Source: an uncultured Bacilli bacterium
GTDB lineage: Bacteria; Bacillota_I; Bacilli_A; RF39; UBA660
Direction: 5' to 3'
Assembly: GCA_934167875.1 (NCBI GenBank)
Contig: CAKPMC010000004.1
Location: 21,214 to 85,213, forward strand
Length of the DNA: 64,000 bases
In this document: positions 20,333-38,496 of the stretch, one piece after another
Layout: every line of letters starts with the position of its first letter
Numbering within the stretch: position 1 is the first letter of the stretch
Program-made: the position numbers and the translations under genes
Notes under the pieces: model-generated
The model's database searches: none
Told to the model about the DNA's origin: nothing
Seen by the model: the letters and a program-made list of their open reading frames with translations, nothing else

Positions 20333-22450
20333 ATGAAAAAAACATTAATGGTTTTAATAGTATTGTTTTCTTTATTTATAGTACCAAACTTTAAAGTAAA
20401 TGCCTTAACCGATAGTTTTTATGTGAAAGAATACTTAAACAGTGAATATATTGTAAAAATAAAAGGTCAAACAGGTAAGTATGAACAGATGAGAGCATTC
20501 AGGAGAAAAAGTGATAATAGAATTGCTTATTGTTTAGAATTATGGGAAGGAATAAATGAAAATAAAACTTTAACTGGTTATGATGACGAACAGTATAATC
20601 ATGCTAACATAGATTATTCAAGTTGGGAAAAAGTAATGTTAATATCTTATTATGGATATGGTTACCAAAATCATACTGAACAAAAATGGATTGCGATAAC
20701 TCAATTTATGATTTGGAAAACTTTATCGCCAGATAGTACTTTATATTTTACTGATACCTTAAATGGTAAAAAAATAAATAAATATGAACAAGAAATGGCA
20801 GAAATAAATAACCTGATTAAAAATCATGCAACTATACCATCATTTGATAATCAAACTTTTAATACACGATATAAAGAAGATTATCAAATAATAGATGCCA
20901 ATAACATTTTAGATAAATATGATATAACTGGTTATAATACTAATAAAGTTAGTAAAGTAAATAATACCTTAACTGTAGCTACTACTGAAATAGGTGAGAA
21001 TATCGTTATCTTAGCTAACTCCGGTAAAAATTATAATAATAATCCAACAGTTTATATTGATCCTGCTGGTCAAGATTTATTAATATCAGGTAATTACATT
21101 CCTATTTATTCAGTAGTAAGATTTAACCTACCTGAAGGAAACATTACTGTTACTAAATTAGATAAAGATACTAATACTAAACTACCTCAAGGTAATGCCA
21201 GTCTTAATAATAGTAAATTTATTTTAATGGATAAAGATAATATGATAGTTTCAACTAAAACAATCACTAATAACAGCGAATTAACATTTGAACATCTAGG
21301 ATATGGTACTTATTATCTCAAAGAAATAGAATCAGGAAAGGGTTATCTTTTAAATGATAACGTTATTAAAATAGAAGTAAATAATAATTATGAAAATATT
21401 AATTTTTATAATCAGGTTATTAAAGAAAAAATCATCATAAAAAAATATATAAGAAATACTATAACTAATCAAATAGCCATAGAGGAGGGAGCCATTTTTT
21501 CTATCTATAATTCTAATAATGAAAAAATAACTACCTTTAAAACAGATGAAAATGGAGTATATGAATTAACTTTACCATATGGAGATTATTTACTAAAACA
21601 AGATTATGGTATGATAAATCATTCTTATATAAAAGATATTTTAATATCTATAAATAATAATGGTAATACACAATATCTTAATCTTTATAATGATGAACTA
21701 ACTGCTAAAGTAAAGGTAATTAATACAGATAGTGATTCTAATCTACCTATATTAGAAAGTGGTGCTTCTTTTAAAATAAAAAAATTAGATGGTGATATAG
21801 AAACTTTAATAACCAATGGTAATGGCTTTACCAATGAATTATTACTATCAAGTGGTAAATATCAATTAGAACAGATTTCTTCTGTTGATGGTTATGATAT
21901 TAATAAAAACATATTTGAATTTGAAATAACTGCAGATACTAATTTCATTAATGATAATGGTAATAACCTAATTGAATTAACTGTTCCTAATGATAAGTTA
22001 AAAGGTAAAATAAAAGTTATTAAAAAAACAGAATATTATTTAAATGATATTTTAACAGATACCAAAATAGAAGAATTAAATGATATAACTATTTATGCAA
22101 ATGATGATATTTATTCTAAAGATGAAATTAAACTATATGAAAAAAATAATATAGTTACTTCAAATTTATATTTTGGTACATATTATTTAATTAATCCAGT
22201 AACAAATGCTAAAATAGAATTAATTATCGATACTCCAAGTACCAGAAAAGTAGAAATTATTGAAAAAATATATGAATATGAAACTAAAGATAAAGAGGAA
22301 TCTGATCCAATAAAATCAGACTATGAAGAAATAATAACTAATGTACCTAACACTTACCAAAAGGAAACTATTTCTTATCTTAGTTCTTTACTAATACTTA
22401 CTGGTTTTATTTTAAATAAAATGGAGAAAAAACATGAAACTCATAAATAA
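20333..22450 (+). CDS. sortase-anchored surface adhesin with Cna-B-type (Y-x-L-x-E...G-Y) repeat domains; possible thioester-like N-terminal domain
   Basis: Signal peptide present. Three to four Y.L.E....GY motifs (GTYYLKEIESGKGY, GDYLLKQDYGM, GKYQLEQISSVDGY). The C-terminal sorting signal is NVPNTY followed by a hydrophobic stretch and a KKHETHK tail. The protein has a single Cys in YCLE and a TQFMIW motif. Confidence 0.65.
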   Translation: MKKTLMVLIVLFSLFIVPNFKVNALTDSFYVKEYLNSEYIVKIKGQTGKYEQMRAFRRKSDNRIAYCLELWEGINENKTLTGYDDEQYNHANIDYSSWEKVMLISYYGYGYQNHTEQKWIAITQFMIWKTLSPDSTLYFTDTLNGKKINKYEQEMAEINNLIKNHATIPSFDNQTFNTRYKEDYQIIDANNILDKYDITGYNTNKVSKVNNTLTVATTEIGENIVILANSGKNYNNNPTVYIDPAGQDLLISGNYIPIYSVVRFNLPEGNITVTKLDKDTNTKLPQGNASLNNSKFILMDKDNMIVSTKTITNNSELTFEHLGYGTYYLKEIESGKGYLLNDNVIKIEVNNNYENINFYNQVIKEKIIIKKYIRNTITNQIAIEEGAIFSIYNSNNEKITTFKTDENGVYELTLPYGDYLLKQDYGMINHSYIKDILISINNNGNTQYLNLYNDELTAKVKVINTDSDSNLPILESGASFKIKKLDGDIETLITNGNGFTNELLLSSGKYQLEQISSVDGYDINKNIFEFEITADTNFINDNGNNLIELTVPNDKLKGKIKVIKKTEYYLNDILTDTKIEELNDITIYANDDIYSKDEIKLYEKNNIVTSNLYFGTYYLINPVTNAKIELIIDTPSTRKVEIIEKIYEYETKDKEESDPIKSDYEEIITNVPNTYQKETISYLSSLLILTGFILNKMEKKHETHK

Positions 22451-22994
22451 GGGATTAATTATTTCCTTACTTGGAGTATTTCTATTTAGTTATCAAAATA
22501 TTACTAATCATAAAAAAATAGAAAAAGAAGAAAACAAGATATTTCAAACTTTAGCTAAAGAAACTGGTTATAATTATAAAGATAACGATACATATGATGG
22601 AATCATCGAAATACCACAAATAAATCTGCAAAAGGGTTTCTACCAAAAAAATGATAAAAGAAATAATATCAATGAAAATATAACTATCCATAATATGTCA
22701 ACTTATCCAAACGAAGATAATTCCAATCTTATTCTAATGGCACATTCTGGAAATGGTGAAAAAGCTTACTTTAATGATTTACCAAAGTTAAATACTGATA
22801 GTTTAATAAAAATATATTATCAAAATATTAAATATACTTATAAAATAGATAAGTATTATGAAGTACCTAAAACTGGTGATGTTTCTATAAAAAGAAATAT
22901 AAATAAAAAAACAATAACTCTAATTACTTGTAGTCAACAAGATAAGACTAAGCAATTAGTATACATAGGATACTTAATAGATGAAACAAAATAG
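22434..22994 (+). CDS. sortase (small class-B-like)
   Basis: N-terminal TM, a His motif LILMAHSG and the catalytic Cys motif TLITC. Confidence 0.7.
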   Translation: MKLINKGLIISLLGVFLFSYQNITNHKKIEKEENKIFQTLAKETGYNYKDNDTYDGIIEIPQINLQKGFYQKNDKRNNINENITIHNMSTYPNEDNSNLILMAHSGNGEKAYFNDLPKLNTDSLIKIYYQNIKYTYKIDKYYEVPKTGDVSIKRNINKKTITLITCSQQDKTKQLVYIGYLIDETK

Positions 22995-23008: not shown

Positions 23009-23422
23009 CTATTCCTTTATAAATCCATTAGTTTTAAATTTAGAAACAATTCTATCTTTAGAAACACTACCATTTATTCTAGATGATACAGTTTCTTCAA
23101 CTCCATCTTTATAGAAGATAACAGTAGGAGTACCAGTAATACCAGTCTCACTAAATAAACTATTTTCTTCTTCTTCAGTTATATGATCAGTATTAATAAA
23201 TTTAACTTCAACTTTATAACTATTAGCTACATCAGTTATTTTAGGTTTAAAGTTTATACAAGCACTACAATCAGTTCTCATAATTTCTAAAATAAACGTT
23301 TCTTTATTATCAAGTAATTCTTTATATTCCTTATAACTAATTTCCTTCATATAATCTTTTCCACAACCAGTCATTAGTAATAAACAAACTACTAATACAC
23401 AAAATTTAACTATTCTCTTCAT
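23009..23422 (-). CDS. thioredoxin-fold lipoprotein (CxxC thiol-disulfide oxidoreductase)
   Basis: Lipobox LLMTGC, the active site DCSACINF (CxxC) and a cis-Pro region GTPTVIFY. This is the only minus-strand gene in the island. Confidence 0.7.
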   Translation of the reverse strand: MKRIVKFCVLVVCLLLMTGCGKDYMKEISYKEYKELLDNKETFILEIMRTDCSACINFKPKITDVANSYKVEVKFINTDHITEEEENSLFSETGITGTPTVIFYKDGVEETVSSRINGSVSKDRIVSKFKTNGFIKE

Positions 23423-23527: not shown

Positions 23528-25093
23528 ATGATACTTAGAAAACCGTATGCTTTTTTAATAAAGTATTTTCAAAAGATTAATATTCTACTACTCATCCTAG
23601 TTAGCTATGTCTTTTATAAGAACTTAAAAATATACCAATTTGCTAAAACATACTTAGCTACCGGTATTTATAATTCAAGTATTGATCCTATTAGTAACTA
23701 CGCTAATACTTATGTTTATTTAGCCTTTATATTTATCATTGTAATTAGTTTTATCCTAATTTATTTATTAAGACATAAGGATAAACCATATGCTAGTTAT
23801 GTTTTTGTTTTAGTATCTAATGTTATTGCCTTTGCTTTTTTCTTATATACTAGCCATTATTTTACTTATACAGTAACAGAAGGATATAATTTAGTAGCAA
23901 TTAGAGTAGTAAGAGATTTACTATTTATATCAACATTACCTTACTATCCAATGATATTTATTCTATTAATTCGTTCTATTGGTATTGATCTTAAAAACTT
24001 TGGTTTCCAAGAAGATAAAGAATTTGCTGAAATAAATGAATCAGATAGAGAAGAAGTAGAAGTACAAGTTGCTTTTAATAAAGATAGACTTATTCGTAAA
24101 ATAAAAAATAAGCTTCGCTATTTAAAATACTTCTTTTTAGAACACAAGTTTTCTCTTACGATAGTATTTGTTTTAATATTATTTATATTTGGTTATAACT
24201 TTTATAATTATTTTTATGTTGAAAATAAAGTTTATTCTATGAATGAATCATTTAATAGTAATTATTATCGTATTACTGTTAAAAACACTTACTTAACTGA
24301 TAAAGATTATGCTGGTAATATTGTATCAGAGACCGGTAAATTTTTTATAATTGCTCAAGTTCAAATTCAAAATTTATTAAGTTCTTCCAGAGATTTTGAT
24401 ATTGAAAAAATGTTATTGTTTATAGACCAAGATTATTATGTTCCAACTACTAAATATAATGTTCATTTTAGTGATATGGGTAATACTTATGAAAATAAAA
24501 GTATTAAACCTAAAGAAACAGTTACTTATTCCTTAATATATGAAGTAAAAAAGCCTAATTCAAAAGCTAACTTTTTACTAAAATATCAAGATGTTTTAGC
24601 TAAAGATGGTAAATTAATTGGTGTTAAGATGAAAGTATTAGATATTAGTACATTTAAAACTAAAGGTAATTTTACTTATCCAGAACAAGCAACTATTCCA
24701 ATTAATGAAGAAACTAGCATGACTTTTAGTTTTGATAAAATGGATATAACAGAAAGTAGTACTTATCGTTATCAATCATGTTTACCAGATTCATGCCCAA
24801 TTTATGAAAAAACTATAACAGCTCCATCTGGATATAAAATATTATATTTGAGAGGAAATTTTGGTAGTAATACCACTCAAGAATATTTGGATTTTCTAAA
24901 AAAATATGGTAAAATTCGCTATTCTAAAGATGGTAAGACTTACCAAAGTAATATTAAATTTGCTGTTACTGGAGCATATCAAGGTAGACATATTTATATT
25001 TCCATCCCGGATAGCATAGCTGATGCTGATTCCATATCATTTGTTTTTACTATTCGTACTTACCAATACTTCTATAAGTTAAAAGGAGAATAA
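23528..25093 (+). CDS. membrane protein with C-terminal extracytoplasmic DUF4352-like (Ig-like) domain
   Basis: 4-5 N-terminal TMs. The segment KFFIIAQVQIQN...DQDYYVPTT...ETVTYSLIYEV resembles the DUF4352 fold pattern. Confidence 0.4.
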   Translation: MILRKPYAFLIKYFQKINILLLILVSYVFYKNLKIYQFAKTYLATGIYNSSIDPISNYANTYVYLAFIFIIVISFILIYLLRHKDKPYASYVFVLVSNVIAFAFFLYTSHYFTYTVTEGYNLVAIRVVRDLLFISTLPYYPMIFILLIRSIGIDLKNFGFQEDKEFAEINESDREEVEVQVAFNKDRLIRKIKNKLRYLKYFFLEHKFSLTIVFVLILFIFGYNFYNYFYVENKVYSMNESFNSNYYRITVKNTYLTDKDYAGNIVSETGKFFIIAQVQIQNLLSSSRDFDIEKMLLFIDQDYYVPTTKYNVHFSDMGNTYENKSIKPKETVTYSLIYEVKKPNSKANFLLKYQDVLAKDGKLIGVKMKVLDISTFKTKGNFTYPEQATIPINEETSMTFSFDKMDITESSTYRYQSCLPDSCPIYEKTITAPSGYKILYLRGNFGSNTTQEYLDFLKKYGKIRYSKDGKTYQSNIKFAVTGAYQGRHIYISIPDSIADADSISFVFTIRTYQYFYKLKGE

Positions 25094-25094
25094 T

Positions 25095-26903
25095 ATGAAA
25101 AAAAAGAAAAGAATTATTAAATTCATTATATTAGTATTAATAAGCTTACTTTTAATATTAAGTGGTATTATCTCTTGGAATGTTTATTTTTCCAAACAAA
25201 AGTTATTTGTTGATCAAGAAAAGTTATTTCTAAATGAAGTAAAACACTATTATGATTTAAATAAACAATATTTACCTAAAAAGGGTGAAACTAGAGAAAT
25301 GACTCTTCAAAATTTATATGATATTAATTATATTGATGGTCTCTATATACCTAAAACTAAAACTTTATGTGATAGTAATAGTTGGGTAAGAGTATACCAT
25401 AATGATAATGATGAATATGAATATACTACATATTTAAAATGTGGTAAATATGAAACAAAAGTAGATCATATTGGACCTAAAATAACTTTAAATGGTGATA
25501 TGCAATTAGTAATAGCACTAGGTAGTACTTATGAAGAATTAGGTGTAGCTAGTGTAGAAGATAATATTGATGGTAAAATTGATACTTCTAAAGTAATAAT
25601 AGAATCAAATGTAGATACTTCTAAGCTAGGTAGTTATGAAGTAACTTATACTATAAGAGATAAAAATTATAATAAAACAGTTGTAACTAGAACAGTAATA
25701 GTAGCTAATAATTTAACTGAAGTAGTAAAAAAGAATACTGATGCTACAGGTTATTATAAAGGATTGAATCAAAATAATTATTTATTATATTCAGGAATGT
25801 TATTTAGAATAGTTAAAGTTAATGAAGATGGTAGTATTAAATTAATAACAGATGAAGCTATTACTAATTTAAGAGCTGATTATGATAATTATGAAAATTC
25901 AAACGTTGATACTTGGTTAAAAGAAGTATATTTAAAAAGTTTAAATAAAACAGATAAATACTTAGTAGACAGTACATACTGTGTAGGTAATATAAATTCA
26001 ACTACTGATTATACTACTGAATGTAGTAGTACCATTACATCAAAAGTAGGCTTACTAAATATTAGTGATTATTATAATACACTAGCTAATAATAATTCAT
26101 CTATACATACATCACGATATATGTTAGCTAATAAAGTAGATAATAACTATTTATCTGCCCCAATTACAGATAAAGATATAACTGTGACTACAAAAATATT
26201 AGCACCAATTAGACCTGTTATTACATTAAAAGCTAATTTATATCTATTAAGTGGCAATGGAAGTAGTGATAACCCATATAAATTAGATGATTACAGTTAT
26301 GCTAAAGCAAATGACTTATTAAGCAGTAGAATAGTTGGTGAATATGTTCAATATTCTGGTCTATCATTTCGTATTATAGGAATTGATTCTAATAAAAATG
26401 TGAGATTAATTATGGCAGATCCATGGGTCGTTCAACCTAAAAATAAAGCTTTAACATTGAGTATAGAAAATTTAAGTAATACAAGATTTAATTTGACAGA
26501 AGAAAATAATCCAGGATACATTTTAAATAATGATTATTTAGACTATATTGATACAAAATCAATAGTTGATACAGAATATGAAATTCCAACAACAGTTGAT
26601 GAAGTAAATTACAATGACTATCAAACAACACCAATTAAAGCTAAAATTTTATTACCAAAAACTTATGAATTATTTGCTAGTAGCGGCAATAGTAAGGAAA
26701 ATATGATATCGTCATATATGTATATTGATTCAACAGATAATTCTAATACGGTATATGCAATAAATGGTGCAACTGGCAATGTTTTTGAATTTAATACTCA
26801 AGCCTTATCAGAATATAGAATACGTGCTGTACTAACTATAAAAGGTGATTTAAAAATATCAAGTGGCAAAGGAACAATTAATTCCCCATATTTATTAAAG
26901 TAG
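25095..26903 (+). CDS. N-terminally membrane-anchored extracellular protein, unknown function
   Basis: A single N-terminal TM followed by a 570-aa hydrophilic, Asn/Thr/Tyr-rich domain. Confidence 0.4.
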   Translation: MKKKKRIIKFIILVLISLLLILSGIISWNVYFSKQKLFVDQEKLFLNEVKHYYDLNKQYLPKKGETREMTLQNLYDINYIDGLYIPKTKTLCDSNSWVRVYHNDNDEYEYTTYLKCGKYETKVDHIGPKITLNGDMQLVIALGSTYEELGVASVEDNIDGKIDTSKVIIESNVDTSKLGSYEVTYTIRDKNYNKTVVTRTVIVANNLTEVVKKNTDATGYYKGLNQNNYLLYSGMLFRIVKVNEDGSIKLITDEAITNLRADYDNYENSNVDTWLKEVYLKSLNKTDKYLVDSTYCVGNINSTTDYTTECSSTITSKVGLLNISDYYNTLANNNSSIHTSRYMLANKVDNNYLSAPITDKDITVTTKILAPIRPVITLKANLYLLSGNGSSDNPYKLDDYSYAKANDLLSSRIVGEYVQYSGLSFRIIGIDSNKNVRLIMADPWVVQPKNKALTLSIENLSNTRFNLTEENNPGYILNNDYLDYIDTKSIVDTEYEIPTTVDEVNYNDYQTTPIKAKILLPKTYELFASSGNSKENMISSYMYIDSTDNSNTVYAINGATGNVFEFNTQALSEYRIRAVLTIKGDLKISSGKGTINSPYLLK

Positions 26904-26910
26904 GTGTCTT

Positions 26911-27684
26911 ATGAAAAGCAGAAAAAAAATTATAGTAATTTTAGTGATTTTTATAATTGCAATAATTTTCTTAGTTATATCAATAAAAAAAATTACAACA
27001 AAAAAAGCTGATAACCAATTAATGAATTTAAATTTTAAAAGTAGGGTATCAGAACTAGAAAACTTTGATAGCAAGGATTATTCAAAAATAGGTTGGCTAC
27101 AGGTACAAGGTACAACTATTGACTTACCAATTTTAGATTTTAGAAGTGCTACTGATAATAGTATTAATTATTCCTATGCTTGGCTAAATTCCAATTATAA
27201 CACTGGAGAAAATCGCCAAGTAATTAATGGGCATAACATTTTAAATGTGTCATCAACGCCATTAATTAATGATGAGAATTTGACTGATTTTGAACCGTTA
27301 ATGGCATTTACATACGCAAGTTTTGCCAAAGATAATTTATATATTCAATATACAAAAGATAATCAAGATGAAATATATTTAATATATGCTGTTGGATTTT
27401 ATGATTATTTATATGATAGTGATTATAGTTACAATGACAAAGAAAAACTGACTAAATACATAAATGATGTAAGAGAAAATAGTATATACGATTACGAAAT
27501 AGATGTTAATTCAGATGATGATTTAATAGTATTAAAAACATGTACAAGATACTTTGGAGCAACAGAAAAGCAATCTTTTACTATTAACGCAAGAAAATTA
27601 AGAAAAAATGAAGAAATAGTTAAATATAAAGTAACAACGAATAAGTTATTTGATGAACTACTTAATAATAGCAAAAAAGGTTAA
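26911..27684 (+). CDS. sortase (class-B-like)
   Basis: N-terminal TM, GWLQVQGTTIDLPIL, His motif VINGHN, and the catalytic Cys in LIVLKTCTR. Confidence 0.7.
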   Translation: MKSRKKIIVILVIFIIAIIFLVISIKKITTKKADNQLMNLNFKSRVSELENFDSKDYSKIGWLQVQGTTIDLPILDFRSATDNSINYSYAWLNSNYNTGENRQVINGHNILNVSSTPLINDENLTDFEPLMAFTYASFAKDNLYIQYTKDNQDEIYLIYAVGFYDYLYDSDYSYNDKEKLTKYINDVRENSIYDYEIDVNSDDDLIVLKTCTRYFGATEKQSFTINARKLRKNEEIVKYKVTTNKLFDELLNNSKKG

Positions 27685-27741
27685 AAAATATTTAAAAAAC
27701 ATTTGAACTATGATATACTTTATTAAGATATAGAGGTGTTT

Positions 27742-30654
27742 ATGAAAAAAATAACATATATACTAACAATTTTATTTTTATTAATTAGTTTTCCAAATAT
27801 AGCAGAAGCAAAAAAAAATGATTCACAACTTAATGTTTGTCTTAATAATAGGTTGTATTCTGTTCTATATGACTCTACTAAGCCAATTACTAGAAATATG
27901 ATAGGAATTGGTGAAGATGGTAAACCCAGAATTATTAATGACGGCACATTAGATGAATATGAAATAACTTTTACTGAACTTGGTACTAAATGTCGTAACG
28001 ATGGGGATAATATTATCAACTGTCCAGAAGATGGCTCTATCTATACATATAAAAATATAAGAACAGCATATTTAAATGACGATACAGAAACAGAAACAAC
28101 AACTATTAATAGTGATAACATAATTCTTAATTTCAACCAATCAACAGGAAAATTTAATGTCACAATAAAAGATAAATTTAATGATAAAGTTTATATAAGA
28201 TATGTATCAGATGAAAAAAATTTGAATGTTTCAGACGATGATGATATATCTAGATACTTGAATCAATTTTTAAATAGAAGTAATGGCAATTATTACATAA
28301 ACGGTGTTGATGGACAATCTATCGTTTATTTAGAGTTTTATATAAAAGATTCTAATTCTAAATGTAAGGATACCTATATTGGATATATTTCTTTTTCATT
28401 ACCATCAGCTTATGATTATGAACTTGATAATCCAGCACTTTCATCTCCGAGTGACTATGGATGTGATGCCGTTAAAAATTATAAACCAGATGCTATGAAA
28501 ATTGATAGCGATGAATATAAAAACTTATTATCACCCATGAAGGAAAATTATATACATGAATGCTATACAGATAAAAAATTATCGTTTGGTTCGATAGGAA
28601 TAGGTGGATCAACACTAAAAAATACAATAAATAGTAAACTAGAAAAATTAAAAGATCTATTTTCTGATTACCAAATTTCTGAATCAAAAAATGGTAAGAT
28701 ATGTACTGATTTATATTCTACTTCACCTAAAGTAACATATGCAAGTAGTGGAAAGTACTGGGCTATGGTATGTACAGAAAAATATACTGCTACAGGCGAT
28801 GAAGCAAAATTGGTAAAAGCTGGTGAAGGATTTGAATATCAAGCAAATTATACAATAACTAGGCAGTGTAAATTAAGCCAAATTTCAAAACCAACTAAAT
28901 TGCCTAAATGTGAATATGAACTCCACCATTCATGCGATTGGAATATGAGTAATGGTACTAGAAAAGGTTGTAGTGGTGCCGATTGTGACGGTGGACCTAA
29001 TGACGATTTTGATATATGTGTTAAAGAATGTGATAATGGAAAATATTCACAAGAATGTATAAATGCTTGCTACCAATCAGTTTATAGTTCAGATAGAAAA
29101 TTAAGTATTTCAAATTCATCTTTAAAAAAAGATGGCAGAATACAATTTGTATCCCTTCAACACTCACAAACCTTCACACAATCTAATACAAATATTTCAT
29201 GTACAACAGCATATGGAAGAGCTGGATACTTAATTTATTACCAATGGCCAGCAAGTGGAACACCAAAGGTAAGTGGTACAGCCTGCTTTAGTACTAATTT
29301 CTGTGCTGGAAAAGGTGCTGGTGCCTGTACATTTAATACTTATAAAACACCTGATAATTGTGTGGAAGATCCAGAAACAACATATAAAAACGCATTGGCA
29401 GCATCAAAATCTGAATATGAAGCATATATAAATTATCAACAAAGTTCAGTTCCTTCTGGAACATATACTTATCAAATTACGGACTCATTTTTAAAAACTG
29501 GTAAAAAAACAGGAAATGAGGATAATAGTACCCCATATGTATTTGAAGTAAAAAGTAATGATAATTTTGACCCAAAAGTTAAAGTTGATAAATCAGAATC
29601 TAAGACAGGATCTGACTACAAAACTGAAACATTAGGCAATAGTGGCGGTGAATCAGTAAGTTATTATGAAAACTATACTGTCAAAGCAGATATTAAAACA
29701 AGTCTACCTTTATCATATGTTAATAAAATAACAGGTGGAACGGTTTATAAATCTGATGAAACAACTAAAAATAATGCATATGAAATTTATCAGAACGAAT
29801 CTGGTACTCGTAAATTGAGAAAAGTTCAGCAAGAAGGGACATCACCAACATCTGAATCTCATCCAATTACTGAGTTTATCGCATCACGCTATTATCATCA
29901 AGATAACGAGAGAAAATACTACACAAGCATTTGGAGCCAGAATACTAATGTTTTAATTCTTGAAAATAGAGTTTATCTAAAACCTAGAAATGATGTTAAT
30001 ACTAATTATAATATCAAGGTAATAAGTTCTAGTGTGGGTGCTGGAAATTTTGGATCTACTATAGATTGCTACTATGGTGTATACAACAGTTATTACTGTG
30101 ATAATAAAGACGATTGTCCAGTACCAGAATGTAAAGAAAATTGTCCTGATCCAACAGGAATTCAATATATATATCGTGTTATTGATTTAACTGATGTTTT
30201 CCCAAATGATAGAAATCCTAGATGGAATTGGACAAGCAGTGCTGCTAGAAAAGCAAGTGAAACTCGTATAGGATACAATATTGATCCAATTGCTAAAACT
30301 AAAGATATTGAGTCAAAAGGAGAATCAATTTATACTGATCAAAGCGAAACTGACTATGAATTCTATTTAACTAGAGAGAATATAAGAAATATACGTGACT
30401 ATAATAAGCATGTTAAAGACTATAATAATGATGGTTCCAACAATTATTTAGATTATAATATGAGCTGTTATATAGATGCTAAAGGCAGACAAATCTGTAC
30501 TAGCAGATTTTTAGATAATATAAATGGAAATAGTGGTTCAGAAGAATCTTCTAATTATATTACTTATGGATCACAATTCACAATTGACAGTAGAAAAGCT
30601 CTAGCTGGATGCAATGATGCTATAGGTCAATCATGTAATGATAAATACAATTAG
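27742..30654 (+). CDS. large secreted cysteine-rich protein (about 40 Cys), unknown function
   Basis: Signal peptide ...FPNIAEA/KKND. Paired Cys occur throughout (CPEDG, CDGGPNDDFDICVKECDNG, CPVPECKENCPDP). No sorting signal is present. Confidence 0.5.
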   Translation: MKKITYILTILFLLISFPNIAEAKKNDSQLNVCLNNRLYSVLYDSTKPITRNMIGIGEDGKPRIINDGTLDEYEITFTELGTKCRNDGDNIINCPEDGSIYTYKNIRTAYLNDDTETETTTINSDNIILNFNQSTGKFNVTIKDKFNDKVYIRYVSDEKNLNVSDDDDISRYLNQFLNRSNGNYYINGVDGQSIVYLEFYIKDSNSKCKDTYIGYISFSLPSAYDYELDNPALSSPSDYGCDAVKNYKPDAMKIDSDEYKNLLSPMKENYIHECYTDKKLSFGSIGIGGSTLKNTINSKLEKLKDLFSDYQISESKNGKICTDLYSTSPKVTYASSGKYWAMVCTEKYTATGDEAKLVKAGEGFEYQANYTITRQCKLSQISKPTKLPKCEYELHHSCDWNMSNGTRKGCSGADCDGGPNDDFDICVKECDNGKYSQECINACYQSVYSSDRKLSISNSSLKKDGRIQFVSLQHSQTFTQSNTNISCTTAYGRAGYLIYYQWPASGTPKVSGTACFSTNFCAGKGAGACTFNTYKTPDNCVEDPETTYKNALAASKSEYEAYINYQQSSVPSGTYTYQITDSFLKTGKKTGNEDNSTPYVFEVKSNDNFDPKVKVDKSESKTGSDYKTETLGNSGGESVSYYENYTVKADIKTSLPLSYVNKITGGTVYKSDETTKNNAYEIYQNESGTRKLRKVQQEGTSPTSESHPITEFIASRYYHQDNERKYYTSIWSQNTNVLILENRVYLKPRNDVNTNYNIKVISSSVGAGNFGSTIDCYYGVYNSYYCDNKDDCPVPECKENCPDPTGIQYIYRVIDLTDVFPNDRNPRWNWTSSAARKASETRIGYNIDPIAKTKDIESKGESIYTDQSETDYEFYLTRENIRNIRDYNKHVKDYNNDGSNNYLDYNMSCYIDAKGRQICTSRFLDNINGNSGSEESSNYITYGSQFTIDSRKALAGCNDAIGQSCNDKYN

Positions 30655-30664
30655 GAGGTAAACC

Positions 30665-31099
30665 ATGAGTAAAGGAATGACTATTGTAGGAATTATAATT
30701 ATTGGTGTATTAACACTATTTGTTGTTAATATCGTTCAAAACTATCAAAATGGTAGTGAACTTGATTTCTATTTGCTACAAGAAACAACAGAAGCAGCAA
30801 TGCTTGATGCTGTTGACTTAGGATACTATCGTTCTAGTGGTGGTATCCTAAGAGTAGATAGAGAAAAATTTCTAGAAAGCTTTGTTAGAAGATTTGCTGA
30901 AAGCGTAAATCAAGATAGAAATTATAAAATAAAAGTTATCGACTTCAATGAAACACCACCCAAAGTAAGTATCCAAGTTGGTTCAAGTACTGTTGCTACT
31001 TTTGCAGGTGACAGTTTTGATATAGTTACAAAAGTAGATGGAATATTAGAAACAAAATATTATGAAGACAGACTACTTAAAGATGTCGTAGAAGAATAA
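30665..31099 (+). CDS. pilin/pseudopilin-like small membrane-anchored protein (TadE/TadF-like candidate)
   Basis: 144 aa. A short polar N-terminus is followed by a single hydrophobic helix (MSKGMTIVGIIIIGVLTLFVVNIV) and then a hydrophilic domain. First gene of the Tad-like cluster. Confidence 0.35.
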   Translation: MSKGMTIVGIIIIGVLTLFVVNIVQNYQNGSELDFYLLQETTEAAMLDAVDLGYYRSSGGILRVDREKFLESFVRRFAESVNQDRNYKIKVIDFNETPPKVSIQVGSSTVATFAGDSFDIVTKVDGILETKYYEDRLLKDVVEE

Positions 31100-31115
31100 G
31101 AAAGGGGAAAATAAT

Positions 31116-31976
31116 ATGAAAGGTAATTTTTCAATGACTATTAAAAAGTTCTTAACTAATAAGAACACTGTTACTATTGTTGGGGTACTATTAGCAATAG
31201 TAATTCTATATGTTGGATATAACTACCGTGTTAAATCAGCAATTAATCCAATTAAAGTACCATATGCAAAACAAACTATAAATCCTAAAACTAAAATAAC
31301 TAGTGATATGATAGGAAGTATTGAGGTACCACCATCAATGCTAAAAGGTAAAGCTATTACCGATGTATCAAAAATAGTTGGTAAGTATGTTAGTGCTGAT
31401 ACTATCATACCAGAAGGAAGCTTATTTTATAGCGCAGCTGTTAAATCAGCTAGCGAAATGCCAGATTCAATTATCTATAATTATCCAGATGGTTGGGTAT
31501 TAGTTAATATGAGTGTTAACACTACTAATACTTATGGTAATAAAATCTTCCCAGGTAATTACATTGATATATATGTAAAAGCCGTAAATAAAATAGATGA
31601 AGATAATATGACTAGTGAAACCAAAGATAAAATCATGGTTGGTAAATTATTAGAAAATGTTAAAGTAATCGATGTAGTAGATGCAAATGGTGATAGTGTA
31701 TTCGAAAATCTTGAAGATATTAAAACACCATCTCAAATCATCTTTGCTGTACCAGAAGAATATCATATCTTACTTCGTAAAGCTATGTATTTAAGAACAT
31801 ATGAAGTAACATTAATTCCAGTACCAACTGCTGAATCATTAAAAGAAAATCCTGGTGAAGTAACTATTTCTAATGAAGCTTTAAAGAATTTCATTAATAA
31901 AGTAACTGTTTGGGATATAAATGTAACAGAAGATAATAATGGAAACATTAATATAGATTTAAATGGAAATCAATAA
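31116..31976 (+). CDS. cpaB: Flp pilus assembly protein CpaB/RcpC-like (SAF-domain protein)
   Basis: N-terminal TM followed by a beta-rich SAF-like domain and a C-terminal domain. The 286-aa size and position upstream of the CpaF ATPase fit CpaB. Confidence 0.55.
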   Translation: MKGNFSMTIKKFLTNKNTVTIVGVLLAIVILYVGYNYRVKSAINPIKVPYAKQTINPKTKITSDMIGSIEVPPSMLKGKAITDVSKIVGKYVSADTIIPEGSLFYSAAVKSASEMPDSIIYNYPDGWVLVNMSVNTTNTYGNKIFPGNYIDIYVKAVNKIDEDNMTSETKDKIMVGKLLENVKVIDVVDANGDSVFENLEDIKTPSQIIFAVPEEYHILLRKAMYLRTYEVTLIPVPTAESLKENPGEVTISNEALKNFINKVTVWDINVTEDNNGNINIDLNGNQ

Positions 31977-32003
31977 TAAAAAGAATAAAAAGGGGAAAAT
32001 ATT

Positions 32004-33521
32004 ATGAAAGAGAATATGTTTGAGCAACTCGATTTTGGGGCTTTTAAAGAGTATATTGATAATGATGATATTACCGATATATCATATACAAATAATGGTC
32101 AAATTTGGCTACGTTCTTTGGAAAAAGGTTCTTATCGAGTAGAAAATCCCAATATAACTAATGCAGCTGTTGAAAAGTTAGCATTCCAATGTTCCAATGT
32201 TATGGGAACTACTTTCAATAATGCTAATCCCTTTTTGGATGCAGAAAGTCCTGAACTTCGTATGAACTTCGTTCACGAATCAATAGCTACTAATGGTATT
32301 GCTTTAGTTATTCGTAAAACTCCAGCTAAGATTCGTTTAAAAGAAGAAAACTTATTAAAAGAAGATTACGTAACTAAAGATATTCATGACTTTCTAATCC
32401 AATGTGTATTAGGACATTGTAATATAATTGTTTGTGGAGAAACTGGTAGTGGTAAAACTGAGTTTGTTAAATACTTAGCTAGCCATACTAAAGAAAATGA
32501 AAAAATAATAACCATCGAGGATACACTAGAACTTCACTTAGATAAAATATATCCACATCGTGATATAGTAGCTATGAAGACAAATAATATTGCTTCATAT
32601 TCTGATGTATTAGTTACCTGTATGAGACAAAATCCTAAATGGATACTATTATCAGAAGTACGTAGTGCTGAAGCCGTTAGTGCAGTTCGTAACTCAATAT
32701 CATCAGGACATAATATTTTATCAACAATCCACTCAGATAAAGCTAGTGCAATACCACATCGTATGTATTCACTTATGGAAACAGATATAGATGTAGAACA
32801 ATTCTTAAATACAATCTATCGTTATGTTCAACTTGGTGTACATATCAAAGCATATTATAGTCAGAAATATGGTAAGTTTCATCGTGAAATAGATGAAATA
32901 ACAGAATTTTATATTGATGAAGAAACTAATAAACCAATTTATAATACTATTTATCAAAAAACAATGACTGGTAAAGTAGTTAAGAAAAATCCAAGTAAAC
33001 ATTTACTTGACTATTTATTAGGACAAAATATTGATGTTAGTAATACTGCTTTTGGTGATGATGTAGGTAAGGAAAAAGATGGCGAAATTAACATGGATAA
33101 AATAGTAGAAGCTGAAAATAGTAACAGCGTTGAAACTAAACAGCCAGAAAATAAACCTATGCCAGTAGATACTAATGATAATCAAGCACCAGTTGAAGAA
33201 GGTAACAAACCAGTTATAAATAGTAGTAATAATTATGAAGTAAAAACACCAGTAATTAGTCCTGAAGTAAAACCTACAACTACTGAAATAAAACCACAAC
33301 CTTCAACTATACCAGTAACTAATACATTAGCTACAAATGATGTAGTACCACCTGTTATTCCTAACGTAGTATCAACACCAGACATAAAACCATCAGGTCC
33401 AATTAGACCTACACCAGATCAGGTAGTACAAATACCAAATCAAAATAATAATTCAAATATTAGTCAATTTTCAATAAATGACATCTTAGCAAATTCAGGA
33501 GATCATAGTAATAATCAGTAA
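32004..33521 (+). CDS. cpaF: Tad/Flp pilus assembly ATPase CpaF/TadA (VirB11/GspE superfamily) with ~140-aa Pro/Thr/Val-rich disordered C-terminal extension
   Basis: Walker A GETGSGKTEF, IEDTLEL (Asp box), Walker B ILLSEVR and a His box STIHS. The C-terminal 140 aa (PVEEGNKPVIN...KPTTTEIKPQPSTIPV...) is low complexity. Confidence 0.8.
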   Translation: MKENMFEQLDFGAFKEYIDNDDITDISYTNNGQIWLRSLEKGSYRVENPNITNAAVEKLAFQCSNVMGTTFNNANPFLDAESPELRMNFVHESIATNGIALVIRKTPAKIRLKEENLLKEDYVTKDIHDFLIQCVLGHCNIIVCGETGSGKTEFVKYLASHTKENEKIITIEDTLELHLDKIYPHRDIVAMKTNNIASYSDVLVTCMRQNPKWILLSEVRSAEAVSAVRNSISSGHNILSTIHSDKASAIPHRMYSLMETDIDVEQFLNTIYRYVQLGVHIKAYYSQKYGKFHREIDEITEFYIDEETNKPIYNTIYQKTMTGKVVKKNPSKHLLDYLLGQNIDVSNTAFGDDVGKEKDGEINMDKIVEAENSNSVETKQPENKPMPVDTNDNQAPVEEGNKPVINSSNNYEVKTPVISPEVKPTTTEIKPQPSTIPVTNTLATNDVVPPVIPNVVSTPDIKPSGPIRPTPDQVVQIPNQNNNSNISQFSINDILANSGDHSNNQ

Positions 33522-33532
33522 GGAGGGTAACT

Positions 33533-34426
33533 ATGGAACTACTTATTTTATTAGCCATTGCCTTATTTGTAATGTTATATAGACAATATCGTGGGCAAAA
33601 CGTATATAAATTCATAACAGAACAAGCAGGAATGGTATATGATAAATTTGCTCCTTATTCTTTTAAGGTAGTAAGAGAGAAAACTAAAGAATTAGGTCAG
33701 GAATATACACCAAAACAGTATATTCTTCAGAGTGTAGTATTTACTATATTTGCAGCGGTTATTTCTTATTTATATTTTTATAATATTTTTATATCCCTTA
33801 TATATGTAATAATAGCCAATGCATGTATTCCATACTTAGCTTACTTAAGATGTAAAAGAGTATATAGTGAATTTATATTTGAACAAATCCAAGTATATAC
33901 TACTAATACTATTATGGAATTTGCTACTACTCAAAGTTTTGTTAAATCACTAGAAGGAGTAGCAGCCAGTGGAGTATTAGAAGATCCAGTACTAACTGAT
34001 GTTAATATGATGATTTCTATGGCATATGAAAATGGTTCTATTGATGAATCAGTAGAATATATGAGTTCTAAATATCCATATTATATAGTTAAAAATATGC
34101 ATCAATTATTCTTACAGATTACTAAAGAAGGAGCTAAAGATTCAGGAGAATCACTTGAAAATATGCAACTTGATATCGATATGCTTGTTGAAAGTGTATA
34201 TCGTGATCGTATTGATAGAGCTAACTTCCATAAATCATTCTTAAAATATGGTGTTATGTTGTACTTAATGGTAATGCTAGTTCAATATCTGTTAGGAAAA
34301 GAAACCTATATAGCTATTTTAAGTAATCCACTTATGATATGTATTCTTCATGGTATTTTAATAATCAACAGTTATTTTCTTCTAAAAGGAGAAAAATATT
34401 ATAACGAGAATGTAGGTGGAGAATAA
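33533..34426 (+). CDS. tadB: Tad pilus assembly inner-membrane protein TadB-like (T2SS-F family)
   Basis: 297 aa. One N-terminal TM, a cytoplasmic helical domain, then 2-3 C-terminal TMs. Directly follows cpaF. Confidence 0.6.
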   Translation: MELLILLAIALFVMLYRQYRGQNVYKFITEQAGMVYDKFAPYSFKVVREKTKELGQEYTPKQYILQSVVFTIFAAVISYLYFYNIFISLIYVIIANACIPYLAYLRCKRVYSEFIFEQIQVYTTNTIMEFATTQSFVKSLEGVAASGVLEDPVLTDVNMMISMAYENGSIDESVEYMSSKYPYYIVKNMHQLFLQITKEGAKDSGESLENMQLDIDMLVESVYRDRIDRANFHKSFLKYGVMLYLMVMLVQYLLGKETYIAILSNPLMICILHGILIINSYFLLKGEKYYNENVGGE

Positions 34427-35211
34427 TGGAAGTAATTATTTGTGGAGCTCTTATCTTAGGAGTATTACTTTATAATAAAACAGTAGATGGTAAAAAGTTT
34501 GTTCAAGATAATCAAGATATTTTCTACTTACTAAAAGAAAGTGATTATGACTTCTTAGTAGCTGCCAAATATGGTGAAAAAGTTGATCCTAATGTTTTAT
34601 TTAATAAAAGATTAAAAATGGCTTTTATTACTATGGTAATATTTCTATTTATATTTTTAACAGAATTATCAGTTCTTAATGTTGTTTTATCATTATTTGT
34701 TGGTTATATTGTTTTTAAATCTAATTATACATCTTTAAAAAAGTATTATAAGAAACATTTACATGATATAGATGTAATGTTGCCATACTATTTAAAGGGT
34801 CTAGAAATTTTAATTCAACATTATACTGTACCAGTAGCATTAGCTAAATCAATAGATGATGCACCAGAAATATTTAAACCTGGACTAAGAAATCTAATTG
34901 CTAAAATTGATGCAGGTGATTATAGTATTGATCCATATATGGAATTTGCTAATGAGTATCCTGTTAGAGATTCAATGCGTATGATGAGATTACTATACCG
35001 TTTAGGTTTAGGTAAACAAGAAGATAAACAAGAAAGATTATTAATGTTTTCAAGAACAGTTTCTAACTTACAAGCTAAGGCAAGAGAAACCAAGTATAAA
35101 GAAAGATTAAATCATATGGAAAGTCAAACTATGATAATGCTAGTAGCAACAGGTGCTGGTGTTATGGTACTTATCCTAATATCTATGCTTTATATGTTCC
35201 AGAATATTTAG
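34426..35211 (+). CDS. tadC: Tad pilus assembly inner-membrane protein TadC-like (T2SS-F family)
   Basis: 261 aa with the same topology as the preceding gene. Its start abuts the tadB stop. Confidence 0.6.
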   Translation: MEVIICGALILGVLLYNKTVDGKKFVQDNQDIFYLLKESDYDFLVAAKYGEKVDPNVLFNKRLKMAFITMVIFLFIFLTELSVLNVVLSLFVGYIVFKSNYTSLKKYYKKHLHDIDVMLPYYLKGLEILIQHYTVPVALAKSIDDAPEIFKPGLRNLIAKIDAGDYSIDPYMEFANEYPVRDSMRMMRLLYRLGLGKQEDKQERLLMFSRTVSNLQAKARETKYKERLNHMESQTMIMLVATGAGVMVLILISMLYMFQNI

Positions 35212-35218
35212 TATAATA

Positions 35219-35246
35219 AAAGTCAGAGTAATAGCTCTGACTTTTG
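35219..35246 (+). terminator. rho-independent terminator after tadC-like gene
   Basis: agtcagag-taatag-ctctgact followed by TTTT. Confidence 0.6.
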
Positions 35247-35276
35247 GATATAATTATGCATTAAAAGGAGTAGTAC

Positions 35277-36590
35277 ATGAACAAAAAAAATATATTGATA
35301 TATTTAACTTTTGTAATACTATTAATCATTGTCTCATGTTTATCTCAAACGGAATTAGATGGAGTTTGGGGTTATGGTTTTAGTTACAACATAGCTAGTG
35401 GACTTATTCCATATAGAGACTTTAATATGGTAGTAGGTCCATTATATAGTATTATTTTTTCAATATTTATAAAAATATTTGGGAATTATTTTTTAGTATT
35501 TTCTATACAAAGTGCACTTATATATGGATTAATTATGTTACCAATATATAAAAAGATAGGTTGGAAATCCATTTATATAATATTACTACTGGGATGTTGT
35601 TTAACAACTTTTGGTTATAATACTTTTTGTGCCATGTTAGTATTACTAATAATGTGTATAGAAGATAGTGATTATAAGTATAAAACAATGCTAACAGGAA
35701 TATTAATTGGTACAATAATAATGACAAAACACAATATTGGTATTTGCTTATTATTAGTATTTTTATTAATTAATTATAAAAAGAAACTACAAGTTTTAAG
35801 TGTTTTAATTCCAATAATTCCAACAATTATTTATTTAATTGTCAACAATACCTTTTATTCATATATTGATTTTTGTTATCTTGGACTTGGTAAATTTTTA
35901 GATAATTTATATATAGATATTTTCACAATTCCTATAATAATTTATGTCATATATTTTATAATAAAAAATTATAGAATAAATAAAGATAAAATAATTCTTT
36001 ATTTATTAGCATTTCAAGTAATGGTATTTCCAATATTTGATCAGGGGCATATTTTACCAGCATTGATTCCATTTACATACTATATATTTGCTAAAAACGA
36101 ATATCCAAAAGTAAAATTTTATTTAAGCTATTTTATTATAATAGGAATATCAGTTAATACTATTTCCAACTTAGTATTAACAAAAGTATATATGAATAAT
36201 GATTATTTATTTTTACAAAGAGTAAAAACTGAAACCATAACATATCTTGATAATTACTCAAAATACCTAGAGAAAAACAAAGATAAAAAAATATATTTAT
36301 TACTAGATAATGCATATTTAATAAAAATATATCGCAATGAAAATCCAACTTTTTATGATTTAATAAATATGGGAAATTTAGGTAGTAATGAGCAAAAGTA
36401 TATAGACAATATGTCAAAGGAATGTGCTAATAAGAAGTGTATGTTTATTTTAGATAAAAGATACTTTGTAAAAAAATTATATGGTGAACAAAGATCAGAA
36501 ACATTTAAAAAATATACCATAAATAATGCTAATTATTTAGAAACATTACCATCTGGAGATAGAGTATATGTTAATTATGTAAATGAATAA
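35277..36590 (+). CDS. polytopic membrane protein (about 11 TM) with C-terminal soluble domain; possible GT-C-like glycosyltransferase within the Tad cluster
   Basis: 437 aa. The first extracytoplasmic loop has ELDGVWGYGFSYN...PYRDF. Extremely AT-rich. Confidence 0.3.
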   Translation: MNKKNILIYLTFVILLIIVSCLSQTELDGVWGYGFSYNIASGLIPYRDFNMVVGPLYSIIFSIFIKIFGNYFLVFSIQSALIYGLIMLPIYKKIGWKSIYIILLLGCCLTTFGYNTFCAMLVLLIMCIEDSDYKYKTMLTGILIGTIIMTKHNIGICLLLVFLLINYKKKLQVLSVLIPIIPTIIYLIVNNTFYSYIDFCYLGLGKFLDNLYIDIFTIPIIIYVIYFIIKNYRINKDKIILYLLAFQVMVFPIFDQGHILPALIPFTYYIFAKNEYPKVKFYLSYFIIIGISVNTISNLVLTKVYMNNDYLFLQRVKTETITYLDNYSKYLEKNKDKKIYLLLDNAYLIKIYRNENPTFYDLINMGNLGSNEQKYIDNMSKECANKKCMFILDKRYFVKKLYGEQRSETFKKYTINNANYLETLPSGDRVYVNYVNE

Positions 36591-36672
36591 TATAAAAAAA
36601 ATTAAAAAATATAGTAAAGTTTAAAAAATATGATATAATAAAAATGTATATATAATAAAGGAGGAGTTATTA

Positions 36673-36858: not shown

Positions 36859-36893
36859 TATAAAGATTTAATTGTTAGAAAAGCGGTGATAGT

Positions 36894-38404: not shown

Positions 38405-38407
38405 TAA

Positions 38408-38436
38408 TTGTCAAAAAATGTAAATAATTTTATAAT
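38408..38436 (+). promoter_or_regulatory. sigma-A promoter (TTGTCA - 17 nt - TATAAT), with a second TTGACT-17-TATTAT just downstream
   Basis: Near-consensus hexamers immediately upstream of the VirB2-like gene. Confidence 0.5.
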
Positions 38437-38496
38437 ATATTGACTAATAAAGCCAATTATTATATTATTTAATTAGTATTAAGGAGGGAATTTGTT

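Follow-up and report, generated by a model that had tools for sequence, protein, structure and literature searches.

A cysteine-rich exported protein family within a Tad-like and type IV secretion supercluster of uncultured gut Bacilli

We analysed a 64,000-nucleotide stretch of contig CAKPMC010000004.1 from an uncultured Bacilli bacterium (referred to as the window), focusing on a single gene, here called Cys970, that encodes a 970-amino-acid (aa) protein with 31 cysteines. Judged from its sequence, the gene product is Sec-exported and carries neither a membrane nor a cell-wall anchor. Gene order across species places Cys970 as a core syntenic member of a chromosomal supercluster (the module) that joins a Tad-like machine, of the type IV filament kind, to a type IV secretion system (T4SS) resembling those of mycoplasma integrative conjugative elements (ICEs). 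The chances seem to us about even that Cys970 is a disulfide-stabilised adhesin or a pilus-associated surface subunit. The core idea of the first-pass annotation of this DNA, a disulfide-rich exported protein linked to a pilus-like system, holds, and the feature is statistically solid; the T4SS context, the size of the family, the lack of a known fold, the hypervariability and a conserved odd cysteine are added here. The features of the gene are as follows.

27742–30654, + strand: Cys970, cysteine-rich secreted protein of an uncharacterised family, 970 aa, 31 Cys (open reading frame and homology searches)
27742–27810, + strand: Sec signal peptide, residues 1–23, probable cleavage AEA/KK, read from the sequence
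28702–28704, + strand: codon of C321, the best candidate for a conserved unpaired cysteine (present in 125/126 relatives; segment parity)
29017–29070, + strand: twin-CX3C motif C426-X3-C430-X8-C439-X3-C443, in 'GPNxDFDxCVxxCDxGKYxQxCINxCY', invariant in 126/126 sequences
30199–30231, + strand: non-cysteine motif FPNxRxPRWNW, residues 820–830, with F820, P821, R824, N829 and W830 invariant or near-invariant

Export signal and protein family

Cys970 is one unbroken open reading frame (ORF) on the + strand that ends at 30654 and begins either at 27736 (GTG, giving 972 aa) or at 27742 (ATG, giving 970 aa). P0001, a metagenomic protein at 98% identity, begins at the ATG and is 970 aa long, and we number residues from that codon. 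Of the 972-aa secreted protein originally described, both the export and the ORF stand, and the length applies only if translation starts at the GTG. The N terminus is, by eye, a classical Sec-type signal peptide (MKKITYILTILFLLISFPNIAEA|KK). Signal peptides are kept across the family, with a consensus of a hydrophobic core followed by a 'VxA|' cleavage site, in agreement with the extracytoplasmic location that had been proposed. The same N terminus has neither a lipobox nor a prepilin leader and no N_methyl Pfam match; the leader is of the Sec type and not the class III signal peptide of type IV pilins and pseudopilins. At the other end, the homologues finish in a conserved GCNN...C loop, and none of 83 carries a sorting signal (LPXTG-like motif, hydrophobic stretch and basic tail) or a hydrophobic tail, for which reason we rejected Cys970 as a sortase substrate.

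A word-indexed homology search returned 21 relatives down to 29% identity, all of them metagenomic and unnamed; repeating it with the alignment as a profile gave the same 21. Searching 1.84 billion cluster representatives with HMMER enlarged the family to 624 clusters (defined at 50% identity) at E ≤ 1e-3, with 562 at E ≤ 1e-10. Taking one genome per GTDB species, we found 127 encoding loci and kept 76, nearly all in metagenome-assembled genomes labelled as uncultured Bacilli, 'Tenericutes', Mycoplasma sp. CAG:877, Erysipelotrichaceae, Ca. Scybalousia or Ca. Faecimonas. These host groups are RF39/RFN20/ML615J-28-type relatives of mycoplasmas (PMC10868615); the G+C content of the window is 21–34%. 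PLSDB plasmids and IMG/VR contigs contained no relatives of the protein, and we therefore rejected a phage or plasmid origin.

The protein matches no family in Pfam, NCBIfam (E ≤ 0.01) or PHROG. Pfam scans of seven longer relatives gave no match and no informative fusion, and those of 51 members gave no recurrent family at E ≤ 0.05. There was no match by sequence in the Protein Data Bank (PDB), either with the single protein (phmmer) or with the family profile, and the PilY1/PilC, TraN, TadG and vWA adhesin families yielded no profile match and no PDB match by profile or fold. AlphaFold reached a pLDDT of 66 with 16 sequences and of 81.9 (pTM 0.67) with 79 diverse relatives. The model contains beta domains at residues 28–230, 316–400, 471–540, 574–700 and 725–781, helical parts (region 231–306, a hairpin at 421–448 and a long helix at 544–566) and an alpha/beta C-terminal region at 815–970. 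Structure prediction and Foldseek had been suggested as a check on the first description; they produced this pLDDT-82 model but no known fold. Foldseek searches of the PDB with both the pLDDT-66 and pLDDT-82 models, and of BFVD, gave FN3-like noise only, the best match being a phage tail protein at E = 1.4e-3 with a TM score of 0.09, and FN3/Ig-like sandwiches are the sole fold-level resemblance. FPNxRxPRWNW lies in the best-conserved, C-terminal region, and GPNxDFD and DYEF are further invariant non-cysteine motifs of the family. Having no known fold, Cys970 is a good target for structural biology.

Cysteine pattern and candidate free thiol

The 31 cysteines, fewer than the approximately 40 first estimated, lie at positions 33, 84, 94, 208, 241, 274, 321, 344, 376, 390, 398, 410, 415, 426, 430, 439, 443, 487, 515, 521, 529, 540, 776, 786, 792, 797, 801, 909, 919, 957 and 965. 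They make up 3.2% of the protein, compared with 1.07–1.18% in the other 43 ORFs of the window (binomial P 1e-6 to 1e-7), and the remaining exported proteins of the module and its surrounding island have 0–0.7%. Around 27 of the 31 are conserved in relatives as distant as 24–37% identity. Firmicutes normally exclude cysteine from their exported proteins (PMC2823432), and this exported family of about 600 clusters, whose members have 25–50 cysteines and come from strictly gut-associated Bacilli, clearly departs from that rule. It implies an efficient and unstudied capacity for oxidative folding in these uncultured lineages.

Two motifs had earlier been quoted as signs of disulfides, and both are present, at C415–C443 ('CDGGPNDDFDICVKECDNGKYSQECINAC') and C792–C801 ('CPVPECKENCPDP'). 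None of the 30 successive Cys–Cys intervals has CxxC spacing and the family alignment has no conserved histidine. The paired CxxC or CxxH of a zinc ribbon or zinc knuckle is thus missing, and we rejected the zinc-ribbon reading on the spacings. The invariant twin-CX3C motif falls on two predicted antiparallel helices (421–431 and 437–448), the layout of a twin-CX3C helical hairpin; in hairpins of the small-Tim/CHCH type, twin CX3C motifs are stapled by two disulfides. The likeness of the modelled hairpin to these proteins appears to be one of architecture alone, and we do not claim homology to Tim proteins. Cysteines are also gained and lost jointly. Co-variation links 909 with 919 (phi 0.97), 957 with 965 (0.91), 241 with 274 (0.74) and also 410 with 415, and C344 and C376 disappear together in relatives; all these pairs are located on adjoining predicted strands. 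When the family alignment was divided into 14 segments, the Cys count was even in 11, and in 9 of these it was even in 83–100% of sequences.

Because CxxC is absent, the twin CX3C sits in a helix hairpin, cysteines change in pairs and segment counts are even, the cysteines look structural and disulfide-forming rather than metal-binding, as first proposed. From this pattern we strongly infer that the 31 or so cysteines form about 15 mostly local disulfides, two of them stapling the twin-CX3C hairpin, and that the bonds would give a rigid multi-domain scaffold on which surface residues are free to vary.

The total, by contrast with the even segment counts, is odd. With signal-peptide cysteines removed, 109/123 cluster representatives have an odd mature count (P = 2e-19), and among full-length homologues from genome loci the figure is 61/72 (P = 1.5e-9). 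Overall, about 87% of the family have an odd mature total, as does the query with its 31. A conserved odd count implies one conserved free thiol, and the excess maps to three places. C321, present in 125/126 relatives, is the sole cysteine of segment 300–334 in 111/126; this segment is odd in 94% of sequences and its flanking segments are even. C776 stands alone in segment 760–780, which is odd in 99% of sequences, and the stretch 450–759 has an odd count overall. Two of these places presumably pair with each other, leaving one free. If bonds are mostly local, C776 would pair back into 450–759, and the conserved cysteine that stays unpaired is most likely C321. Neither the odd-cysteine pattern nor the candidate free thiol figured in the first-pass annotation; both are new here. 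The odd-cysteine rule offers a simple, testable biochemical handle.

A second Cys-rich exported protein (633 aa, 27 Cys or 4.3%), with a prepilin methylation motif at its N terminus (Pfam N_methyl, E = 7e-8), is encoded at 59235–61136 (+), outside the island among housekeeping genes. Paralogy with Cys970 is unsupported (23% identity over 104 aa, E = 0.007). Its presence shows that tolerance of Cys-rich exported proteins in this organism extends beyond Cys970.

Supercluster context and candidate roles

Gene order around Cys970 is strictly conserved in about 75 loci of different species. It runs from a 521-aa polytopic protein through a 602-aa Ig-like/DUF6273 protein, a 257-aa SrtB-like sortase, Cys970 and a DUF5411 protein to an RcpC/CpaB-like protein, a secretion ATPase, two polytopic proteins, a 61-aa pilin-like ORF and a 173-aa protein, and on through a 324-aa protein, a VirB2-like pilin, a 456-aa protein and a VirB6-like protein to the remaining genes. 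Cys970 is present as a single copy at a fixed position. There is no terminator-like site on the + strand within 23528–36900 and intergenic gaps are 0–66 bp, which is consistent with one long operon; a promoter scan was uninformative in this AT-rich DNA, finding fewer sites than in shuffled sequence. In the window, the surrounding features are as follows.

23009–23422, − strand: thioredoxin-fold lipoprotein, 137 aa, CSAC active site, divergently transcribed (Pfam Thioredoxin)
23528–25093, + strand: polytopic membrane protein of 521 aa, ectodomain DUF4352-like; the conserved module begins with this gene; C418 and C423 conserved
25095–26903, + strand: 602-aa N-terminally anchored surface protein, Ig-like and DUF6273, four conserved Cys
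26911–27684, + strand: divergent class-B-like sortase, 257 aa; H108, C211 and R213/R228 conserved
30665–31099, + strand: DUF5411 protein, start 10 bp downstream of Cys970 (Pfam DUF5411 E = 8e-48)
31116–35211, + strand: RcpC/CpaB-like protein, TadA/CpaF/VirB11-type ATPase and two polytopic proteins in the TadB/TadC position
36673–37415, + strand: 61-aa Flp-like pilin (MKEATG/ELNMTVV...) and 173-aa TadE-like protein
37430–50835, + strand: T4SS half

The sortase directly adjoins Cys970 in 73/79 loci, and across 76 homologues the conservation of its H108, C211 and R213/R228 is 95% or more. Its best PDB matches are C. difficile SrtB (E = 1.6e-6), and its family scores lie under the cut-offs (Pfam, 21.3 versus 26.6; TIGR03064, 35.7 versus 153.75). 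A second sortase occurs at 22434–22994, so the report of sortases nearby was correct. Downstream, the conserved N terminus of the DUF5411 protein (MSKG|MTIVGIIIIGVL) looks prepilin-like. The RcpC/CpaB-like protein scores 27.9 bits for RcpC (cut-off 28.8) and 21.8 for SAF (cut-off 21). The ATPase is of the TadA/CpaF type by its Pfam T2SSE match (E = 2.9e-27), is equally close to CpaF, FlaI and VirB11 in the PDB, and has VirB11 and 'TadA family conjugal transfer-associated ATPase' as its top NCBIfam matches. The N terminus of the 61-aa ORF, MKEATG|ELNMTVV, is invariant and the Flp EY motif is absent. A Tad cluster had been placed directly downstream of Cys970. The DUF5411, RcpC/CpaB-like and ATPase genes and their synteny in about 75 loci support that placement; the full 'Tad' label goes too far and should read 'Tad-like'.

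A full T4SS in the island was overlooked by the first-pass annotation. Its genes run in the order 324-aa protein, VirB2-like pilin, 456-aa protein, VirB6-like protein, 107-aa protein, split VirB4, SpoIID+CHAP wall hydrolase, 245-aa lipoprotein and VirD4, ending at 50835. NCBIfam identifies VirB4 as the Mbov_0397 family (343 bits) and VirD4 as the CD1115 family (316 bits, cut-off 250), and matches the VirB6-like protein to MMCAP2_0566, Mbov_0396 and pLS20_p028, family matches that group the system with those of mycoplasma ICEs and Gram-positive bacteria. In nearly all loci where the sequence extends far enough, the Tad-like half directly adjoins the T4SS half. The VirB4, VirB6-like and VirD4 matches are shared with mycoplasma ICE/MPF-FATA systems; unlike those, the window has no relaxase, integrase or DDE transposase among the ORFs scanned, the T4SS is fused to a Tad-like module and the chromosomal site is shared by several species. 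Housekeeping genes flank the cluster, with wall-polysaccharide genes and GalE to its left and rhodanese, VanZ, TypA and LspA to its right, and the site that several species have in common lies beside U32 peptidase and TrmL. With these flanks, no relaxase, integrase or transposase among the ORFs scanned and no plasmid or viral relatives, the cluster is a chromosomal machine without a relaxase and not a demonstrable ICE. The same relaxase-less chromosomal situation has been reported for the T4SS of Patescibacteria (PMC12102498). Over 100 species of prevalent, uncultured RF39/RFN20-like gut bacteria carry the Tad-like/T4SS supercluster.

Cys970 is by far the least conserved gene of the module, with a median of 0.09 bits per residue across loci, against 0.5–0.6 for the 521-aa and 602-aa proteins and the sortase and 1.0–1.6 for the ATPase, platform, DUF5411 and pilins; the ATPase and platform themselves span 1.1–1.5. 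Between the window and a 98%-identical strain (L001), the gene has 22 nonsynonymous and 33 synonymous changes, whereas machinery genes have 1–2 and 5–8. Variation is greatest in residues 1–300 and 560–720, and conservation in 331–390, 421–450 and 811–930. A rigid cysteine scaffold with a fast-changing surface looks like that of exposed receptor-binding proteins. As the most variable and probably outermost part of the supercluster, Cys970 is therefore a likely determinant of the cell or surface that is engaged.

The thioredoxin-fold lipoprotein is the sole credible minus-strand gene of the island, as first noted. It scores 45.6 bits for PF00085 Thioredoxin (cut-off 23.5), has a lipobox (LLMTGC) and a CSAC active site, and its gene has a terminator-like hairpin at 23016–22993. 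In an iterative search of all ORFs of 83 loci, an orthologue was found in 35, always divergent from the 521-aa gene. All 35 have the CxxC of the thioredoxin superfamily (CSAC, CTAC, CPAC, CSHC, CPYC and others, with SA, TA, PA, SH, PY or IN as the central dipeptide) and a TGC/SGC lipobox. The conserved divergent position and the CxxC are good evidence that the lipoprotein belongs to the module in the window's clade. It weakly matches TraF, PedC/BrcD and TrbB, below the cut-offs of the PedC/BrcD and TrbB isomerase models (TIGR01295, 26.7 versus 120 bits; TIGR02738, 18.3 versus 132 bits); precomputed 'PedC-like' Pfam matches are listed for its orthologues, and its closest solved relatives are reducing thioredoxins.

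We weigh Cys970 as an adhesin or pilus-associated surface subunit in the following form. After Sec export, oxidative folding would build about 15 disulfides, assisted in the window's clade by the thioredoxin lipoprotein as an oxidase or isomerase for Cys970 and for other proteins with Cys pairs. The conserved central and C-terminal regions would dock onto pilin-like partners, with DUF5411 as the first candidate and the 61-aa Flp-like pilin and 173-aa protein as others, and the hypervariable N-terminal and middle domains would form the contact or adhesion surface. Contact through this surface could draw the T4SS up to a target cell, for example in mating-pair formation or attachment to a host cell. 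The lone thiol may form an intermolecular bond, giving a homodimer or a link to a partner. Of the pilus tip, adhesin or secreted effector suggested earlier, synteny with Tad-like genes and the extreme evolutionary rate fit an adhesin or pilus association.

Several observations weigh against this. Pfam and Foldseek searches (PDB and BFVD) revealed no homology or fold match of Cys970 to any adhesin, and its high divergence could also mean relaxed constraint. The Tad identity of the partner machine is incomplete: the two proteins in the TadB/TadC position have no T2SSF, Pfam or PDB match (hhalign of one against the other gives a probability of 8.8%), and no prepilin peptidase (A24/TadV) was found among the window ORFs scanned. 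As for folding, about 24 loci with sufficient upstream sequence have no thioredoxin gene within ±10 kb, and presence of the thioredoxin gene does not correlate with the cysteine load of the homologues (32.1 in loci without it versus 33.7 in loci with it, P = 0.21). No DsbB, VKOR or CcdA partner was seen in the window, and the hosts are presumably strict gut anaerobes.

The closest parallels for an adhesin or pilus subunit are the PilY1/PilC tip adhesins and PilV of R64/TP114, which are likewise large, Sec-exported non-pilins beside minor-pilin-like genes and combine a conserved docking part with a variable exposed part, a division that would apply here too. The conjugative thin pilus of R64/TP114 is reported to be a type IV filament encoded together with a conjugation-type T4SS, as in our supercluster (PMC9045228). 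In contrast to PilY1/PilC, Cys970 has no Pfam or solved-fold match and its pilin contact is a predicted one; in contrast to R64/TP114, the pilus machine here is Tad/VirB11-like and not type IVb. A predicted and uncharacterised CpaF–PilC–DUF5411–internalin-like operon of Roseburia, Ruminococcus and Eubacterium (Miller et al. 2022, PMC9523054) also combines DUF5411 and a CpaF-type ATPase with a presumed surface-interaction protein, but no Cys-rich family, sortase, thioredoxin or T4SS is described there.

The part assigned to the lipoprotein is the first point at which another reading competes. It had been proposed as a dedicated disulfide oxidoreductase or isomerase. Synteny in 35 loci ties it to the module, but its absence from about 24 loci weakens the case for a dedicated partner, as do the conserved Cys pairs elsewhere in the module (in the VirB2-like pilin, in the 602-aa, 521-aa and 173-aa proteins and in some pilins). 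On these sequence grounds we take it for a folding helper at the level of the module, with the 970-aa protein as its probable heaviest client. Alternatively, it may not be an oxidase for Cys970 at all and may instead act as a reductase or guardian of sortase C211 and the lone cysteine, or as a general helper for Cys pairs. We regard this as unlikely on balance, though with an appreciable chance. The module does contain a sortase with one essential cysteine, a protein with a conserved odd cysteine and several further proteins with conserved Cys pairs, and the variable CxxC dipeptide and the reducing thioredoxins among the closest solved relatives point the same way. However, the locus has no electron supplier of the CcdA or DsbD type, and the weak similarity extends to the PedC/BrcD and TrbB isomerases as well.

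Gram-positive helpers of this general kind include MdbA of Actinomyces and Corynebacterium (sortase pilins), BdbDC of B. subtilis (ComGC) and PedC/BrcD (bacteriocins). In those cases disulfide-bonded pilus or secreted proteins depend on an extracytoplasmic thioredoxin-family protein (PMC9974433), as Cys970 may do. Their substrates have 1–2 disulfides, whereas Cys970 would need about 15, and the window lipoprotein is far from PedC/BrcD (26.7 bits versus a cut-off of 120).

Cys970 might instead be a surface or wall-spanning part of the T4SS that is independent of any pilus, such as a mating adhesin or a channel cap like F TraN or enterococcal PrgB. This is an improbable alternative. In the F plasmid, TraN has 22 cysteines, TraU 11 and TraH 6, TraN is a variable mating-pair adhesin, and the system encodes its own thioredoxin-like isomerase, TrbB (PMC11315126). 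Our supercluster resembles F in being a DNA-transfer system in which Cys-rich extracytoplasmic parts accompany a thioredoxin-fold protein of its own (TrbB/TraF in F); the window thioredoxin weakly matches both TraF and TrbB, and the two halves of the supercluster are contiguous in nearly all loci. Against this, Cys970 always lies in the Tad-like half beside DUF5411 and not among the VirB-like genes, and one locus (L004) keeps the block from the thioredoxin to the TadC position with no detectable downstream T4SS genes. There is no TraN or PrgB family match, nor any family relationship with TrbB (18 bits versus 132). The host here is monoderm, the helper is a lipoprotein and about 40% of loci lack the thioredoxin, all unlike F. 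In none of the parallels drawn (F TraN/TrbB, PilY1/PilC, conjugative type IV pili and MdbA/BdbDC/PedC) did profile searches place the window proteins in the known family.

Less probable again is that Cys970 is a secreted cargo, either enzyme or effector, which the Tad-like machine would drive across the cell wall in the manner of a type II secretion pseudopilus. A Sec signal with no anchor would suit a cargo, the invariant GPNxDFD, FPNxRxPRWNW and DYEF could form an active or binding site, and Miller et al. called the related Clostridia operon 'secretion-related'. Yet we detected no catalytic domain, no conserved histidine and no immunity-like partner gene, and the protein is structural-looking, rich in beta-sandwiches and encoded by one gene that keeps its place in the operon.

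A bolder extension of the adhesin reading is a long shot: Cys970 would represent a new class of disulfide-knotted, thiol-armed adhesin, with a free cysteine (C321 or a nearby partner-less one) that bonds covalently between molecules, in a combined machine for obligate attachment and exchange. The covalent partner could be a target-cell molecule, a second copy or the membrane-anchored SrtB-like enzyme that is always upstream, and in the last case the bond would tether an otherwise anchorless protein. RF39/RFN20-like gut Bacilli with reduced genomes would in that event use a relaxase-less Tad-like/T4SS machine for obligate cell–cell attachment and exchange instead of classical conjugation, as has been proposed for Patescibacteria.

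Finally, it is very improbable that the cysteines bind metal (zinc or Fe–S) or that the protein is cytoplasmic: high cysteine density alone, and the ability of small Tim-type CX3C motifs to bind zinc when reduced, would speak for this, but CxxC or zinc-ribbon spacing and conserved histidines are absent, the signal peptide is conserved and cysteines are gained and lost pairwise.

Other genes of the locus

The ATPase (32004–33521, +) has a low-complexity tail of about 165 residues (approximately 340–505) rich in Pro, Asn, Thr and Val, which is not in CpaF or VirB11 structures and differs in length among loci (416–576-aa products). Between the TadC-position and pilin genes, 35277–36590 (+) encodes a protein of 437 aa that is predicted to have many membrane helices and matches no family. 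It is found in only 5 of about 75 loci, evolves rapidly (15 nonsynonymous and 15 synonymous changes relative to L001) and might be a pilin-modifying enzyme. To the left of the conserved module lies an accessory locus:

20333–22994, + strand: thioester-domain (TED+SpaA) adhesin and its own sortase, outside the conserved module; only in the lineage of this strain (L001) and in L018

The adhesin comprises a TED and three SpaA domains, followed by an odd sorting region (..TNVPNTYQKE..), a hydrophobic stretch and KKHETHK; the gene for its 186-aa sortase overlaps the 3' end of the adhesin gene.

In the T4SS half, the 109-aa VirB2-like pilin (38497–38826, +) has invariant cysteines near its N terminus (..CPxDL..) and at its C terminus (..DCW..) in about 50 loci. 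A disulfide between them could tie both ends together, much like the head-to-tail cyclisation of VirB2/TrbC pilins. VirB4 is split on the + strand into 42698–43249 (183 aa, positions 99–276 of the Mbov_0397 model) and 43246–45033 (a 595-aa ATPase, positions 297–893), which overlap by 4 nt. The distant locus L006 likewise has a separate 181-aa 'TraC-like' gene, so the split looks conserved and not a frameshift.

Genes or fragments of PD-(D/E)XK 'Rpn-type' nucleases/transposases recur near or inside the cluster in three loci examined (window, 52555–53379, +; L004, 1333–2157; L002, 17311–17679). Given that there is no integrase or relaxase, they may be relevant to movement of the cluster. A membrane-anchored thioredoxin-fold protein of 175–187 aa with a single active-site cysteine (C-R-x-F; CKSC in L074) is encoded just upstream of the module in many species, including L028 (2426–2968), L058 (2496–3059) and L069 (3253–3780). 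We rejected this monothiol protein of about 180 aa as a module component: its gene, flanked by those for U32 peptidase and TrmL, looks like a housekeeping neighbour and marks the shared chromosomal insertion site. At the left edge of the island, an Acyl_transf_3 gene (19099–20226, +) lies between GalE and the TED adhesin gene; it is absent there from the 98%-identical L001, and therefore represents a strain-level indel.

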